From sequence record OM630586.1: a stretch of 39,592 bases of DNA. One strand, given 5' to 3'. This stretch comes from Escherichia phage vB_EcoP_LNA7. The translations under genes and the position numbers were made by a program. Below, in pieces: positions 25,240 through 38,273 of the stretch (position 1 is the stretch's first letter; the number at the start of each line of letters is the position of its first letter). The notes beneath the pieces are model-generated. The model searched no databases, was not told the origin of the DNA, and saw only the letters and a list, made by a program, of their open reading frames with translations.

Positions 25240-27891
25240 ATGAACACGATTAACATCGCTAAGAACGACTTCTCTGACATCGAACTGGCTGCTATCCCGT
25301 TCAATACTCTGGCTGACCATTATGGTGAGCGTTTAGCTCGCGAACAGTTGGCCCTTGAGCATGAGTCTTACGAAATGGGTGAAGCACGGTTCCGCAAGAT
25401 GTTTGAGCGTCAACTTAAAGCCGGTGAGGTTGCGGATAACGCTGCCGCCAAGCCTCTTATCGCTACCCTGCTCCCTAAGATGATTGCACGCATCAACGAT
25501 TGGTTTGAGGAAGTGAAAGCTAAGCGAGGCAAGCGCCCGACAGCCTTCCAGTTCCTGCAAGAAATCAAGCCGGAGGCGGTAGCTTATATCACCATTAAGA
25601 CCACTCTGGCTTGTCTAACCAGTGCAGACAATACAACCGTTCAGGCAGCAGCCAGCGCAATCGGTCGAGCCATTGAGGATGAAGCTCGCTTCGGTCGAAT
25701 CCGTGACCTTGAAGCTAAGCACTTCAAGAAAAACGTTGAGGAACAACTTAACAAGCGTGTAGGTCACGTCTACAAGAAAGCATTCATGCAAGTTGTCGAG
25801 GCTGACATGCTCTCTAAGGGTCTACTTGGTGGCGAGGCGTGGTCTTCGTGGCATAAGGAAGACTCCATTCATGTTGGGGTGCGCTGCATCGAGATGCTCA
25901 TTGAGTCCACCGGAATGGTTAGCTTACATCGTCAAAATGCTGGCGTAGTAGGGCAAGACTCTGAGACTATCGAACTCACACCGGAATACGCTGAGGCTAT
26001 TGCAACCCGTGCAGGTGCGCTGGCTGGTATCTCTCCGATGTTCCAACCTTGTGTAGTGCCTCCTAAGCCGTGGACTGGTATTACTGGTGGTGGCTATTGG
26101 GCTAACGGTCGCCGTCCTTTGGCACTGGTGCGTACTCACAGCAAGAAAGCACTGATGCGCTACGAAGATGTTTACATGCCTGAGGTGTACAAAGCGATTA
26201 ACATTGCGCAAAACACCGCATGGAAAATCAACAAGAAAGTCCTAGCGGTCGCCAACGTAATTACCAAGTGGAAGCACTGCCCTGTAGAGGATATCCCAGC
26301 GATTGAGCGTGAAGAACTCCCGATGAAACCGGAAGACATTGACACGAATCCTGAGGCTCTCACCGCTTGGAAACGTGCCGCTGCCGCTGTGTACCGTAAA
26401 GACAAGGCTCGCAAGTCTCGCCGTATCAGCTTAGAGTTCATGCTTGAGCAAGCCAACAAGTTCGCTAACCATAAGGCCATCTGGTTCCCTTACAACATGG
26501 ACTGGCGCGGTCGTGTTTACGCTGTGTCAATGTTCAACCCGCAAGGTAACGATATGACCAAGGGCCTGCTGACGCTGGCGAAAGGTAAACCAATCGGTAA
26601 GGAAGGTTACTACTGGCTGAAAATCCACGGTGCAAACTGTGCGGGTGTCGATAAGGTTCCGTTCCCTGAGCGCATCAAGTTCATTGAGGACAACCACGAG
26701 AACATCCTAGCGTGCGCTAAGTCTCCACTGGAGAACACTTGGTGGGCTGAGCAAGATTCTCCGTTCTGCTTCCTTGCGTTCTGCTTTGAGTACGCTGGAG
26801 TGCAGCACCACGGCTTAAGCTACAACTGCTCTCTTCCGCTGGCGTTCGATGGGTCTTGCTCTGGCATTCAGCACTTCTCCGCTATGCTCCGAGATGAGGT
26901 AGGTGGTCGCGCTGTTAACCTTCTGCCTAGTGAAACCGTTCAGGACATCTACGGGATTGTCGCTAAGAAAGTCAACGAGATTCTGCAAGCAGACGTAATC
27001 AACGGGACCGACAACGAAGTAGTTACCGTGACCGATGAGAACACTGGCGAAATATCTGAGAAAGTCAAGCTGGGCACCAAGGCGCTGGCTGGTCAATGGC
27101 TGACTTACGGTGTCACTCGCAGCGTAACTAAGCGTTCAGTCATGACGCTGGCTTACGGGTCCAAAGAGTTCGGCTTCCGTCAACAAGTGTTGGAAGATAC
27201 CATTCAGCCAGCTATTGATTCCGGCAAGGGCCTGATGTTTACCCAACCGAATCAGGCTGCTGGGTACATGGCTAAACTGATTTGGGAATCTGTGAGCGTG
27301 ACGGTGGTAGCTGCTGTGGAGGCAATGAACTGGCTTAAGTCTGCCGCTAAGCTACTGGCTGCTGAGGTCAAAGATAAGAAGACTGGAGAGATTCTCCGCA
27401 AGCGTTGCGCTGTACATTGGGTGACTCCTGATGGCTTCCCTGTGTGGCAAGAATACAAGAAGCCTATTCAGACTCGCTTGAACCTGATGTTCCTCGGTCA
27501 GTTCCGCTTACAGCCGACCATTAACACCAACAAAGATAGCGAGATTGACGCACACAAACAGGAATCCGGCATCGCTCCTAACTTTGTACATAGCCAAGAC
27601 GGTAGCCACCTGCGTAAGACTGTAGTGTGGGCGCACGAGAAGTACGGAATCGAGTCTTTTGCATTGATTCACGACTCCTTCGGGACCATTCCGGCTGACG
27701 CCGCTAACCTGTTCAAAGCTGTGCGCGAAACTATGGTTGACACCTATGAGTCTTGTGATGTACTGGCTGACTTCTATGACCAGTTCGCTGACCAGTTACA
27801 TGAGTCTCAATTGGATAAAATGCCAGCACTTCCGGCTAAGGGTAACTTGAATCTCCAAGACATCTTAGAGTCAGACTTCGCGTTCGCGTAA
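25240..27891 (+). CDS. 1: gene 1 single-subunit DNA-dependent RNA polymerase
   Basis: ORF track 883 aa, MNTINIAKNDFSDIELAAIPFNTLADHYGERLAREQLALEHESYEMGEARFRKMFERQ..., matches T7 RNAP. Confidence 0.98.
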   Translation: MNTINIAKNDFSDIELAAIPFNTLADHYGERLAREQLALEHESYEMGEARFRKMFERQLKAGEVADNAAAKPLIATLLPKMIARINDWFEEVKAKRGKRPTAFQFLQEIKPEAVAYITIKTTLACLTSADNTTVQAAASAIGRAIEDEARFGRIRDLEAKHFKKNVEEQLNKRVGHVYKKAFMQVVEADMLSKGLLGGEAWSSWHKEDSIHVGVRCIEMLIESTGMVSLHRQNAGVVGQDSETIELTPEYAEAIATRAGALAGISPMFQPCVVPPKPWTGITGGGYWANGRRPLALVRTHSKKALMRYEDVYMPEVYKAINIAQNTAWKINKKVLAVANVITKWKHCPVEDIPAIEREELPMKPEDIDTNPEALTAWKRAAAAVYRKDKARKSRRISLEFMLEQANKFANHKAIWFPYNMDWRGRVYAVSMFNPQGNDMTKGLLTLAKGKPIGKEGYYWLKIHGANCAGVDKVPFPERIKFIEDNHENILACAKSPLENTWWAEQDSPFCFLAFCFEYAGVQHHGLSYNCSLPLAFDGSCSGIQHFSAMLRDEVGGRAVNLLPSETVQDIYGIVAKKVNEILQADVINGTDNEVVTVTDENTGEISEKVKLGTKALAGQWLTYGVTRSVTKRSVMTLAYGSKEFGFRQQVLEDTIQPAIDSGKGLMFTQPNQAAGYMAKLIWESVSVTVVAAVEAMNWLKSAAKLLAAEVKDKKTGEILRKRCAVHWVTPDGFPVWQEYKKPIQTRLNLMFLGQFRLQPTINTNKDSEIDAHKQESGIAPNFVHSQDGSHLRKTVVWAHEKYGIESFALIHDSFGTIPADAANLFKAVRETMVDTYESCDVLADFYDQFADQLHESQLDKMPALPAKGNLNLQDILESDFAFA

Positions 27892-27899
27892 CGTCAAAT

Positions 27900-27922
27900 T
27901 AATACGACTCACTATAGAGGGG
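27900..27922 (+). promoter_or_regulatory. Phage RNAP class II promoter phi1.1A
   Basis: taatacgactcactatagagggg. Confidence 0.9.
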
Positions 27923-27924
27923 GG

Positions 27925-27966
27925 ACAAACTCAAGGTCATTCGCAAGAGTGGCCTTTATGATTGAC
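27925..27966 (+). promoter_or_regulatory. RNase III processing hairpin R1.1
   Basis: caaactcaaggtcattcgcaagagtggcctttatga. Confidence 0.65.
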
Positions 27967-28079: not shown

Positions 28080-28208
28080 ATGCGTAACTTCGAAAAGATG
28101 ACCAAACTTTCTAACCGTAACGCCCATGGCTTCGAGGCAACCAAAGGTCGCAAGCTGAATAAGACTAAACGTGACCGCTCTCACAAACGTAGCTGGGAGG
28201 GTCAATAA
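28080..28208 (+). CDS. 1.1: gene 1.1 small basic protein
   Basis: Manual translation MRNFEKMTKLSNRNAHGFEATKGRKLNKTKRDRSHKRSWEGQ (42 aa), matches recalled T7 gp1.1. Confidence 0.8.
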   Translation: MRNFEKMTKLSNRNAHGFEATKGRKLNKTKRDRSHKRSWEGQ

Positions 28209-28209
28209 G

Positions 28210-28467
28210 ATGGGTCGCTTATACAGTGGGAACTTGAATGACTTCAAGGCTGCTTGCAACAGGCTCTACCAGTTGGACTTTGCTGTTATAGCTGTTGAGC
28301 AGGAAGGTTCACCAAACATAAAGGCAACCATGTACCTTCGGATTGAAGATCGTACTGGGCGAGTAGTGGTTCAGGAAGAGATTCACCACTGCGACGAAGA
28401 CGTTCTGTACAATATGTGCACCGCTTGGCTGAACCGCATGTACGACCAGTTGAAGGACTGGAAGTAA
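28210..28467 (+). CDS. 1.2: gene 1.2 inhibitor of host dGTP triphosphohydrolase (Dgt); central region divergent from T7
   Basis: ORF 28171..28467 trimmed to ATG 28210 (MGRLYSGNL...); 85 aa with conserved ends (...DEDVLYNMCTAWLNRMYDQLKDWK). Confidence 0.85.
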   Translation: MGRLYSGNLNDFKAACNRLYQLDFAVIAVEQEGSPNIKATMYLRIEDRTGRVVVQEEIHHCDEDVLYNMCTAWLNRMYDQLKDWK

Positions 28468-28487
28468 TACGACTCAGTATAGGGACA
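28465..28487 (+). promoter_or_regulatory. Phage RNAP class II promoter phi1.3
   Basis: taatacgactcagtatagggaca. Confidence 0.85.
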
Positions 28488-28525
28488 ATGCTTAAGGTCG
28501 CTCATTGAGTGGCCTTAGTCATTTA
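28488..28525 (+). promoter_or_regulatory. RNase III processing hairpin R1.3
   Basis: atgcttaaggtcgctcattgagtggccttagtcatt. Confidence 0.6.
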
Positions 28526-28545
28526 ACCGATAGGAGATAAACACT

Positions 28546-29568
28546 ATGACTAACATTAAGACCAACCCATTTAAAGCCGTGTCTTTCGTAGAGTCTTCCA
28601 TTAAGAAAGCTCTGGATAACGCTGGGTATCTTATCGCTGAAATCAAGTACGATGGCGTGCGTGGTAACATCTGCGTAGACAATACCGCTAACAGTTGCTG
28701 GCTCTCTCGTGTATCTAAAACGATTCCGGCACTGGAGCACTTAAACGGGTTTGATGTTCGCTGGAAGCGTCTGCTGAGCGATGACCGTTGCTTCTACAAA
28801 GATGGCTTTATGCTTGATGGGGAACTCATGGTCAAGGGCGTAGACTTTAACACTGGGTCCGGCCTACTGCGTACCAAATGGACTGACACGAAGAACCAAG
28901 AGTTCCACGAAGAGTTATTCGTTGAGCCAATCCGTAAGAAAGATAAGGTTCCCTTTAAGCTGCACACTGGACACCTTCACGTCAAACTGTACGCTATCCT
29001 CCCGCTGCACATCGTGGAGTCTGGGGAAGACTGTGACGTCATGACGTTGCTCATGCAGGAACACGTTAAGAACATGCTGCCTCTGCTACAGGAATACTTC
29101 CCTGAAATCGAATGGCAAGCGGCTGAATCTTACGAGGTCTACGACATGGTGGAACTACAGCAACTGTACGAGAAGAAACGTGAAGAAGGGCATGAAGGTC
29201 TCATTGTGAAAGACCCGATGTGTATCTATAAGCGCGGTAAGAAGTCCGGCTGGTGGAAACTCAAGCCTCTTGAGGAAGCTGACGGCATCATTCAAGGTGT
29301 AAACTGGGGAACAGAAGGTCTAGCCAACGAAGGTAAAGTTATTGGCTTTAGTGTCTTGCTAGAAAGCGGGTGTGTAGTCGATGCCAATAACATCTCACGG
29401 GAACTGATGGATGAATTTACAGCTAACGTTAAAGAACATGGCGAGGACTACTATAACGGCTGGGCTTGTCAGATTGGGTACATGGAGCAAACACCTAATG
29501 GAAACCTCAGACACCCTTCCTTCACCTGCTTCCGTGGCACCGAGGACAACCCTCAAGAGAAAATGTAA
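28546..29568 (+). CDS. 1.3: gene 1.3 ATP-dependent DNA ligase
   Basis: ORF track 340 aa; adenylation-site lysine motif EIKYDGVRG; shorter than T7 ligase (359 aa) owing to a C-terminal deletion. Confidence 0.95.
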   Translation: MTNIKTNPFKAVSFVESSIKKALDNAGYLIAEIKYDGVRGNICVDNTANSCWLSRVSKTIPALEHLNGFDVRWKRLLSDDRCFYKDGFMLDGELMVKGVDFNTGSGLLRTKWTDTKNQEFHEELFVEPIRKKDKVPFKLHTGHLHVKLYAILPLHIVESGEDCDVMTLLMQEHVKNMLPLLQEYFPEIEWQAAESYEVYDMVELQQLYEKKREEGHEGLIVKDPMCIYKRGKKSGWWKLKPLEEADGIIQGVNWGTEGLANEGKVIGFSVLLESGCVVDANNISRELMDEFTANVKEHGEDYYNGWACQIGYMEQTPNGNLRHPSFTCFRGTEDNPQEKM

Positions 29569-35712: not shown

Positions 35713-37671
35713 ATGATCGTTTCTGACATCGAAGCTAACGCCCTCTTAGAGAGCGTCACTAAGTTCCACTGCGGGGTTATCTACGACTACTCCACCGCTG
35801 AGTACGTAAGCTACCGTCCGAGTGACTTCGGTGCGTATCTGGATGCGCTGGAAGCCGAGGTTGCACGAGGCGGTCTTATTGTGTTCCACAACGGTCACAA
35901 GTATGACGTTCCTGCATTGACCAAACTGGCAAAGTTACAATTGAACCGAGAGTTCCACCTTCCTCGTGAGAACTGTATTGACACCCTTGTACTGTCACGA
36001 TTGATTCACTCTAACCTGAAAGACACCGATATGGGTCTTCTGCGTTCCGGTAAGCTGCCTGGGAAACGCTTTGGGTCTCACGCTTTGGAGGCGTGGGGTT
36101 ATCGCTTAGGCGAGATGAAGGGTGAATACAAGGATGACTTTAAGCGTATGCTTGAAGAGCAAGGTGAAGAGTACGTTGACGGAATGGAGTGGTGGAACTT
36201 CAACGAAGAGATGATGGCCTATAACGTTCAGGACGTTGTGGTGACTAAGGCTCTACTTGAGAAGTTAATCTCTGACAAACACTACTTCCCCGACCAAGGT
36301 ATCGACTGGACTGACGTAGGTAACACATTCTGGCGTGAGTCTGTAGAGGCTGTCGAGCTAGAGCATAAAGCTGCGTGGCTGCTCGCTAAGCAGGAACGTA
36401 ACGGCTTTCCATTCAATACCAAAGCTATCGAAGACCTGTACGTAGAGTTGGCTGCTCGTCGCTCTGAGTTGCTCATGAAGTTGACCGAAACGTTTGGCTC
36501 GTGGTATCAACCTAAAGGTGGCACCGAAATGTTCTGCCATCCGAGGACTGGTAAACCACTGCCTAAATACCCTCGCATTAAGACACCTAAAGTTGGTGGC
36601 ATCTTTAAGAAGCCTAAGAACAAGGCACAGCGAGAAGGACGTGAGCCTTGCGAACTGGATACCCGAGAGTACGTTGCTGGTGCTCCTTACACCCCAGTTG
36701 AGCACGTGGTGTTTAACCCATCGTCTCGTGACCACATTCAGAAGAAACTCCAAGAGGCTGGATGGGTCCCTACCAAGTACACCGATAAGGGTGCTCCTGT
36801 GGTGGACGATGAGGTACTCGAAGGAGTACGTGTAGATGACCCTGAGAAGCAAGCTGCTATCGACCTCATTAAAGAGTACCTGATGATTCAGAAGCGAATC
36901 GGACAGTCTGCTGAGGGAGACAAGGCGTGGCTGCGTTACGTTCAAGAGGACGGTAAGATTCATGGTTCTGTTAACCCTAATGGAGCAGTTACAGGTCGTG
37001 CGACCCATGCGTTCCCCAACCTTGCGCAAATTCCGGGTGTACGTTCTCCTTATGGAGAGCAGTGTCGCGCTGCTTTTGGCGCTGAGCACCATTTGGATGG
37101 GATAACCGGTAAGCCTTGGGTTCAGGCTGGTATCGACGCATCCGGCCTTGAGTTGCGCTGCTTGGCCCACTTCATGGCTCGCTTTGATAACGGTGAGTAT
37201 GCTCACGAGATTCTTAATGGCGACATCCACACTAAGAACCAGATGGCTGCCGAACTGCCTACCCGTGATAACGCTAAGACGTTCATCTATGGGTTCCTTT
37301 ATGGTGCTGGTGATGAGAAGATTGGACAGATTGTTGGTGCTGGTAAAGAGCGCGGTAAGGAACTCAAGAAGAAATTCCTTGAGAACACCCCAGCGATTGC
37401 AGCACTCCGTGAGTCTATCCAACAGACCCTTGTCGAGTCCTCTCAGTGGGTAGCTGGTGAGCAGCAAGTAAAGTGGAAACGCCGCTGGATTAAAGGTCTG
37501 GATGGTCGTAAGGTACACGTTCGTAGTCCTCACGCTGCTTTGAATACCCTACTGCAATCTGCTGGTGCTCTCATCTGCAAACTGTGGATTATCAAGACCG
37601 AAGAGATGCTCGTAGAGAAAGGCTTGAAGCATGGCTGGGATGGGGACTTTGCGTACATGGCGTGGGTGCAT
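35713..37671 (+). CDS. 5: gene 5 DNA polymerase, exon 1 (653 codons)
   Basis: ORF track 35713..37722; homology to T7 gp5 stops after ...DFAYMAWVH at 37671, and the remaining 17 codons of the ORF are intron sequence. Confidence 0.9.
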
Positions 37672-38273
37672 AAACAAATTTCATTGTGCACATTAAATCT
37701 GGTGAACTCGGTGAAACCCTAATGGGGCAATACCGAGCCAAGCCATAGGGAGGATATATGAGAGGCAAGAAGTTAATTCTTGAGGCCACTGAGACTGGCT
37801 GTATCATCCCTACGTCACACAAACTTAATGCCGATGGTTATTTCAGAAAGAAAACCAATGGCGTCTTGGAGATGTATCACAGAACGGTGTGGAAGGAGCA
37901 TAATGGAGAAATACCAGAAGGCTTCGAGATAGACCATAAGTGTCGCAATAGGGCTTGCTGTAACATAGAGCATTTACAGATGCTTGAAGGTACAGCCCAC
38001 ACTGTTAAGACCAATCGTGAACGCTACGCAGACAGAAAGGAAACAGCTAGGGAATACTGGCTGGAGACTGGATGTACCGGCCTAGCACTAGGTGAGAAGT
38101 TTGGTGTGTCGTTCTCTTCCGCTTGTAAGTGGATTAGAGAATGGAAGGCGTAGAGACTATCCGAAAGGAGTAGGGCCGAGGGTGAGACTCCCTCGTAACC
38201 CGAAGCGCCAGACAGTCAACTCAAAGGCTGATGATATAGTCCGACACTCCTAGTAATAGGAGAATACAGAAAG
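37672..38273 (+). mobile_element. Group I self-splicing intron (602 nt) in DNA polymerase gene 5, carrying an HNH homing endonuclease ORF
   Basis: Exon 1 ends in U; intron ends in G; internal guide GUGCAC (37686..37691) pairs with exon end GUGCAU including the U.G wobble; R-like AGAGACUA (38152..38159) and S-like GAUGAUAUAGUCC (38230..38242) can form P7; joining the exons restores a 704-codon polymerase. Confidence 0.85.
37758..38153 (+). CDS. Intron-encoded HNH homing endonuclease
   Basis: ORF track 131 aa; EIDHKCRNRACCNIEHL HNH motif; own SD gggagg; lies entirely within the intron. Confidence 0.85.
   Translation: MRGKKLILEATETGCIIPTSHKLNADGYFRKKTNGVLEMYHRTVWKEHNGEIPEGFEIDHKCRNRACCNIEHLQMLEGTAHTVKTNRERYADRKETAREYWLETGCTGLALGEKFGVSFSSACKWIREWKA

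Follow-up and report, generated by a model that had tools for sequence, protein, structure and literature searches.

A 13a-type gene 1.2 with a recombining, hypervariable centre in the T7-like phage vB_EcoP_LNA7

Introduction

Gene 1.2 of phage T7 encodes an inhibitor of the host dGTPase, Dgt, and the phage requires it only on optA1 hosts, which overproduce Dgt (PMC9478638). The structural work of Klemm et al. 2022 (PMC9478638) names 11 residues of T7 gp1.2 that contact the enzyme: G2, R3, L4, Y5, S6, G7, A10, F12, K13, Y28, and V65. The G2 amine and R3 touch the nucleotide phosphates and stack on guanine, F391, and H126 of Dgt, the L4 carbonyl holds H126, and Y5, S6, G7, A10, and V65 contact Dgt monomer A. 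On the neighbouring monomer, R436 is stacked by F12 and Y28, and F437 by K13. The remainder of T7 gp1.2 "hangs" into solvent with poor density (PMC9478638).

The same protein has been connected to bacterial defence. PMC3276506, citing Schmitt & Molineux 1991, states that T7 gp1.2 or gp10 is needed for PifA-mediated F exclusion and that T3 gp1.2 can prevent this exclusion. The BASEL studies (PMC8594841, PMC11990801) tie the gp1.2 allele to PifA sensitivity, which they report only for phages with T7-like alleles (T7, Bas65, and Bas102) and for Bas105, the bearer of a distinct Kayfunavirus allele; Bas64, with a Berlinvirus-like allele, is PifA-resistant. Sensitivity is nevertheless more complex than the gp1.2 allele, as Bas105 is sensitive and gp10 contributes (PMC8594841, PMC11990801). 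For ApeA, co-expression with T7 gp1.2 is reported in the PhageMaP preprint (PMC11482910) to be toxic and to reduce growth. Variation among gp1.2 alleles has already been discussed in print. Here, we describe the gene 1.2 allele of phage vB_EcoP_LNA7 and ask why the centre of its product differs so strongly from that of T7.

Gene 1.2 lies in a typical early region

We analysed the 39,592-nucleotide record OM630586.1 of Escherichia phage vB_EcoP_LNA7, the whole of which we call the window. The phage is T7-like (Teseptimavirus), and its genome is circularly permuted in this record. Over a stretch of 25 kb it is approximately 93% identical to T7 records; the best match in the phage collection is no higher than about 93.5%. 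Gene 1.2 occupies its class II early-region position, after genes 1 and 1.1 and before the ligase gene 1.3, among these features:

25240-27891, RNA polymerase gene 1
27900, promoter phi1.1A
27978, promoter phi1.1B
28080-28208, + strand, gene 1.1 (Pfam PF08200), product 93% identical to T7 gp1.1
28210-28467, + strand, gene 1.2, 13a-type allele, recognised by its open reading frame, Pfam PF10922, PHROG 2949, and identity to T7 gp1.2
28465-28487, + strand, T7-type promoter phi1.3 (TAATACGACTCAGTATAGGGACA), two mismatches to the consensus, overlapping the gene 1.2 stop codon
28483-28528, + strand, hairpin between genes 1.2 and 1.3, minimum free energy -21.1 kcal/mol, z -4.16
28546-29568, + strand, gene 1.3, DNA ligase, 86% identical to T7 gp1.3

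The open reading frame runs from an ATG at 28210, preceded by a GGAGG motif and by the gene 1.1 stop codon 1 nt ahead, to a TAA at 28465-28467, and it encodes 85 amino acids (MGRLYSGNLNDFKAACNRLYQLDFAVIAVEQEGSPNIKATMYLRIEDRTGRVVVQEEIHHCDEDVLYNMCTAWLNRMYDQLKDWK). Promoter phi1.3 is identical in alignment to that of T7, and the hairpin sits at what we take to be the position of the T7 R1.3 RNase III site. Upstream, at 27917-27925, phi1.1A carries three extra G residues just past the transcription start (TATAGAGGGGGGACA) relative to T7, 13a, and vB_YpYeO9 (TATAGAGGGACA).

The product matches the Pfam family of T7-like gene 1.2, PF10922, at 110.5 bits (cut-off 22, E 5e-32) over residues 1-85 of an 85-position profile, that is, over its full length, and PHROG 2949, annotated "dGTPase inhibitor; target for F exclusion," at E 1e-38. 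These scores rule out a chance open reading frame and, with synteny, confirm the assignment made from sequence in the preliminary description, namely that the gene product is gp1.2, homologous to the dGTPase inhibitor of T7. The longer frame listed at 28171-28467, which starts with GTG and overlaps gene 1.1, is a listing artefact: the functional N-terminus of the family is the MGRLY start, and this conserved, functionally required N-terminus begins at 28210 in the window. Gene 1.2 is similarly over-extended in some GenBank relatives, in which alternative starts overlapping gene 1.1 yield products of 98 or 113 amino acids (vB_YpYeO9, 1768-2064 of L002; HZ2R8, 617-958 of L005).

The protein is predicted to keep the fold of T7 gp1.2 and retains most of its Dgt-contact residues

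An AlphaFold2 model of the window protein, computed with 56 homologs, reached a pLDDT of 87 and a pTM of 0.77. Its elements, helices at residues 7-21 and 63-81 and strands at 25-31, 39-46, and 52-60, follow an alpha-beta3-alpha topology, and the two helices on a three-stranded antiparallel sheet that characterise T7 gp1.2 are present in the predicted model. The best Foldseek match in the PDB was Dgt-bound T7 gp1.2 (7u66_G; TM 0.89, rmsd 1.8 A, 84 columns). The segment that differs from T7 therefore corresponds to the three-stranded sheet with its loops. Three parts of the gene are referred to below:

28213-28236, + strand, N-terminal plug, codons 2-9 (GRLYSGNL), the T7 counterpart of which enters the Dgt active site (PMC9478638)
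28255-28413, + strand, exchangeable central cassette, codons 16-68, comprising the end of helix alpha1, three beta-strands with loops, and the start of helix alpha2
28291-28389, + strand, hypervariable core of the centre, residues 28-60, 27% identical to T7

Window residues 1-9 are identical to those of T7, including the M-G-R-L-Y-S-G start that supplies the free Gly2 amine and Arg3, and across 112 family representatives the conservation of MGRLYSGNL is 95% or higher. Nine of the 11 contact residues named for T7 gp1.2 are kept (G2, R3, L4, Y5, S6, G7, F12, K13, and V65). The two that changed are A10N and Y28A, and Y28 is the sole named contact within residues 28-60. Asparagine occupies position 10 in 100 of the 112 representatives and tyrosine occupies position 28 in four, all T7-type, so that T7 is the family outlier at both changed contacts. 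With the loss of Y28, which in T7 stacks on Dgt R436 and is replaced here by alanine, affinity for E. coli Dgt could differ. In the T7 complex, the centre mostly faces solvent, away from the Dgt contact surface, judging from the text of PMC9478638 and the contacts it names. From homology and the retained contact residues, the window allele would be expected to inhibit Dgt.

Relative to T7, conservation of the ends is at the protein level

Overall, window gp1.2 is 60% identical to T7 gp1.2 (PDB chains 2MDP and 7U65). The preliminary description had held, against a T7 sequence that it quoted, that the centre is strongly unlike T7 and the ends are conserved. The quoted sequence proved correct on comparison, and alignment with T7, T3, and relatives bore out the contrast: residues 1-27 and 61-85 are 77% and 84% identical to T7, respectively, with no high identity at the centre (27%, residues 28-60). 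The two proteins share their Pfam family, length, predicted fold, plug (MGRLYSGNL), F12, K13, V65, and C-terminal helix, whereas the T7 aromatic patch Y28/W31/Y32/Y35/F58/Y59 is missing from the window protein. Across positions 28-35, T7 has four aromatic residues and all 29 of 29 13a-type representatives have none; chemically, the centre differs chiefly by the loss of this cluster. There is no change in net charge, and hydrophobic residues persist at the positions that face the core.

The DNA gives a different picture of the same gene. Flanks that are 94% identical to T7 enclose a diverged tract at about 28215-28437, nearly the whole of gene 1.2, within which 28237-28390 is just 52% identical. 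The last ~30 nt of the gene are near-identical to T7 DNA, with one difference, at 28443, and phi1.3 starts at the 3' end of this stretch, over the stop codon. Synonymous and nonsynonymous differences from T7, counted by the Nei-Gojobori method, were 6.0 synonymous on 5.7 sites and 0 nonsynonymous in codons 1-9; in the codons that follow, pS and pN were 0.76 and 0.22 (codons 10-27), 0.70 and 0.52 (codons 28-60), and 0.60 and 0.13 (codons 61-76). With synonymous sites saturated and no nonsynonymous change in codons 1-9, the ends of gp1.2 must be held by protein-level selection. Against T7, then, they are conserved as protein only, except for the last ~30 nt, which are conserved at the DNA level. 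The initial reading of an intragenic replacement relative to T7 is accordingly rejected, as synonymous divergence runs across the whole gene; genuine breakpoints within the gene emerge only in comparisons with other relatives (Bas65, KKE5P, and the Kayfunavirus contig L095). Saturation of synonymous sites makes dN/dS uninterpretable between allele classes.

The allele is a known, widely distributed type

We searched 50,697 phage records with window gp1.2 by tblastn. The protein was found in 476 records, 21 of them at 80% identity or more to the window protein, including:

vB_YpYeO9, 98.8%
13a and ESh3, 96.5%
UFV01, 95.3%
IME390, PHB20, and CICC 80001, 93-95% over 82 residues
WW2 and Yep_9, 92.9%
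HZ2R8 and ESh1, 91.8%
3A_8767, 90.6%
EG1, 89.4%
EFA-2, 85.9%
KKE5P, 80%

The gp1.2 allele of the window is an ordinary one that was already in the databases, having entered them first with phage 13a (YP_002003940.1). This, together with the printed discussion of gp1.2 variation, makes the novelty of the allele itself low. In 13a and the near-identical copies that we compared (vB_YpYeO9, ESh3, UFV01, HZ2R8, IME390, EG1, and 3A_8767), the gene likewise lies between gene 1.1 and the ligase gene, phi1.3 sits over the stop codon, and the product is 85 amino acids in most; the window differs from these relatives by one to a few substitutions, for instance V52 where most have I52. Altered C-termini occur in IME390 (83 amino acids) and EG1 (88 amino acids).

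In a collection of 5.8 billion proteins, the central type AVEQEGSPNIKATM... was present in 29 of 111 gp1.2 sequences, 106 of which are representatives of 90%-identity clusters, making the 13a-type the second most common class for the 28-42 segment. Single-linkage clustering of modules gave discrete classes for this segment only; the N-terminal, C2, and C-terminal segments chained and were uninformative. A scan of IMG/VR for the EQEGSPNIK cassette returned just four contigs and nothing new.

Phages with 13a-type alleles were isolated on E. coli BL21, MG1655, and W3350, Shigella, Y. pestis, Y. enterocolitica, Salmonella Typhi, and Serratia, and those with T7-type alleles come from E. coli, Shigella, and Y. 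pestis. Since phages can do without gene 1.2 on wild-type E. coli, the host of isolation is a poor guide to Dgt inhibition, and the overlap in hosts is a weak argument against adaptation to a particular host Dgt. The T3/Berlinvirus-type gp1.2 is more distant, at roughly 90-92 amino acids, ~38-41% identity to the window, and a 5-residue insertion in the beta1-beta2 loop; it shares with the window protein MGRLY, G7-N8-L9, K13, D62-E63-D64-V65, W73-L74, and W84-K85. Phage EG1 (L004) has tandem gene 1.2 copies, a 13a-type copy at 1806-2072 (88 amino acids, with a 3-residue C-terminal extension) followed directly by a T3-like copy at 2072-2344 (90 amino acids, 38% identical to the first), an arrangement which suggests that the alleles are not functionally redundant.

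The centre is exchanged within the gene

One case of exchange involves L095, the contig that encodes protein P0011; it matches Kayfunavirus records at 91-94% identity and belongs to that genus. Identity of the window to this contig differs by segment:

28150-28209, upstream DNA, 37%
codons 1-15, 69%
28255-28413, central cassette, 92% (147 of 159 nt)
codons 69-86, 46%
28468-28545, downstream DNA, 32%

A cassette at 92% identity between flanks that cannot be aligned indicates that intragenic recombination has carried a module of ~160 nt across phage genera. The gp1.2 centre is thus an exchangeable module that has crossed between Teseptimavirus and Kayfunavirus. This cassette-level mosaicism, including the transfer between the two genera, is the one incremental point of our analysis.

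Across the family, breakpoints fall at the conserved motifs CNRLYQ/LAVI, LRIEDRxG, and DEDVLYN. Bas65 (JacobBurckhardt) is identical to the window at residues 1-27 (pS 0.19 in codons 10-27) and has a T7-like centre (pS 0.87 and pN 0.51 against the window). KKE5P and about ten metagenomic clusters have a 13a-type first half that changes past LRIEDRTG to NMIDSRTFFHR, the switch in KKE5P falling at codon ~50, and in P0011, P0012, P0017, P0021, and P0023 a 13a-type centre is joined to a different C-terminal module (...NTATNFLNGLADQLDTWSKS). In the 93-amino-acid proteins P0025, P0035, P0037, and P0039, eight residues of strand beta3 are duplicated in tandem (…GNLIDSRTGDLIGSRA…), which likewise points to a sheet that tolerates remodelling.

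Genes for HNH homing endonucleases adjoin gene 1.2 in ESh3 (984-1397 of L006), WW2 (984-1397 of L008), and UFV01 (1-472 of L007), lying between genes 1.2 and 1.3 or upstream of gene 1.1. Such genes could promote local gene conversion around the locus; beside gene 1.2 of the window, there is no HNH insertion.

Within the 13a-type class, dN/dS of the centre is 0.09-0.17 against 13a, vB_YpYeO9, HZ2R8, WW2, and 3A_8767, and 0.48 and 0.93 against ESh3 and UFV01, both of which comparisons rest on fewer than 8 changes. In five of the seven comparisons, the centre is therefore under purifying selection. For the whole gene, dN/dS is 0.03-0.16 against six of seven same-class relatives and 0.24 against the hybrid KKE5P.

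Explanations for the variable centre

The account that we consider probable is that the window carries a functional 13a-type gene 1.2 in which a recombining, hypervariable centre alters how other partners recognise gp1.2 and leaves the grip on Dgt as it is. By homology, window gp1.2 would act as its T7 counterpart does, the plug holding the nucleotide, dGTP or GTP, in a pose that does not allow catalysis and saving dGTP for phage replication. Residues ~28-60, the three-stranded sheet and its loops, constitute a hypervariable cassette that recombines across the family, and exchanging it would change what else recognises gp1.2, with the hold on Dgt unaffected. The likeliest candidates would be host abortive-infection sensors, PifA of the F plasmid and ApeA, both reported to respond to gp1.2. 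An invariant tip, an exposed surface that falls into discrete conserved classes, and exchange across genera make up the pattern expected under selection by sensors. A more specific version, which we put forward tentatively, likens the central sheet to an antigenic cassette: the plug stays constant and the exposed face, by which host sensors (PifA, ApeA, or others yet unknown) would detect an inhibitor of Dgt, is swapped, the aromatic-free 13a-type cassette being an escape variant spread across genera by intragenic recombination.

Could the centre instead have diversified without adaptive consequence? Under relaxed constraint, the sheet surface would have drifted into diverged classes that were then shuffled among co-infecting T7-like phages. 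This account of neutral surface drift plus recombination is viable, although we regard it as rather doubtful. It fits the retention of core-facing hydrophobic residues beneath a changing surface, the small divergent patches that separate gene 1.1 and the ligase gene from those of 13a, the HNH genes next to gene 1.2 in ESh3, WW2, and UFV01, and the mosaic character of the whole genome relative to T7 (L013), in which the tail fibre gp17 (51% identity), gp0.4 (35%), gp1.8 (44%), gp4.7 (67%), and gp7.7 (70%) are all diverged. Drift does not readily produce the low dN/dS of the centre in five of seven same-class comparisons, nor a discrete, internally conserved class (29 of 111 sequences) in place of a continuum; moreover, the cassette was kept after its transfer into another genus, and published data link gp1.2 allele type to a defence phenotype (PMC8594841, PMC11990801).

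The preliminary description raised the possibility that the centre reflects adaptation to a different host Dgt allele. On this explanation, which we find unlikely, the segment was replaced to fit a Dgt variant that T7 gp1.2 inhibits poorly. We compared Dgt across representatives of 80 species of Enterobacteriaceae (L015-L094), a set to which Yersinia and Serratia do not belong. Peripheral contacts do vary between genera, at R137 (R/K/S), H182 (H/Q/W/Y), R436 (R/H/S/Q/G), F437 (F/L/I), and H227 (H/N/D/S and others, even within Escherichia), and the changed gp1.2 contacts, A10N and Y28A, face R137 and R436 (PMC9478638). Residues 10 and 28 of gp1.2 may therefore have a minor tuning role that depends on genus-level variation at these two Dgt positions. 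Only one of the 33 central residues is a named contact, however, and Dgt diversity leaves the other ~30 replaced residues unexplained. The plug-facing active-site residues (Q53, H126, A130, N133, K232, P233, Y272, D276, and F391) are invariant in the 80 species, single odd sequences aside. All Escherichia and Shigella sequences compared share R137, H182, R436, and F437, and dgt is an E. coli core gene, present in 5425 of 5426 complete genomes at 95% DNA identity or more in each. It is, furthermore, T7 that departs from its family at the changed contacts, and the allele spans five host genera and its central cassette two phage genera. Selection by defences that sense gp1.2, such as PifA and ApeA, thus appears better motivated than adaptation to a different Dgt allele. 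Among the other genera, Klebsiella and Raoultella Dgt have S137, W182, S436, and L437 (R137 in one Raoultella), and Enterobacter Dgt has K137 and L437.

That gene 1.2 is decaying or non-functional, as its dispensability on all but optA1 hosts (PMC9478638) and the altered C-termini of IME390 and EG1 might suggest, is most improbable and is refuted as far as sequence data allow: the frame is intact, with its start right after the gene 1.1 stop and GGAGG upstream, the AlphaFold2 model is confident, the plug has no nonsynonymous change despite saturated synonymous sites, and whole-gene dN/dS is low, all of which indicates a gene that is not decaying.

In gp1.2, a tip that plugs the enzyme and does not vary is joined to a hypervariable surface that recombines, and at least two defences are reported to respond to the protein. 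The natural chimeras Bas65, KKE5P, and the Kayfunavirus hybrid offer tools with which to map the part sensed by PifA or ApeA separately from Dgt inhibition.

Other features of the genome

The capsid protein gp10A, which is also reported to trigger PifA, matches that of T7 at 94% identity. In the comparison of the whole window with T7 (L013), which also yielded the diverged proteins listed above, T7 genes 1.4 and 5.3 were not found. Gene 5, encoding DNA polymerase, appears to be interrupted: residues 1-658 of T7 gp5 align to 35713-37686, and a group I intron match follows at 37662-38263 on the + strand (Rfam RF00028, 44.8 bits against a gathering score of 50, E 7e-10). Gene 5 introns of T7-like phages have been described before. 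The putative intron contains, at 37758-38153, an open reading frame for a 131-amino-acid HNH-type endonuclease.
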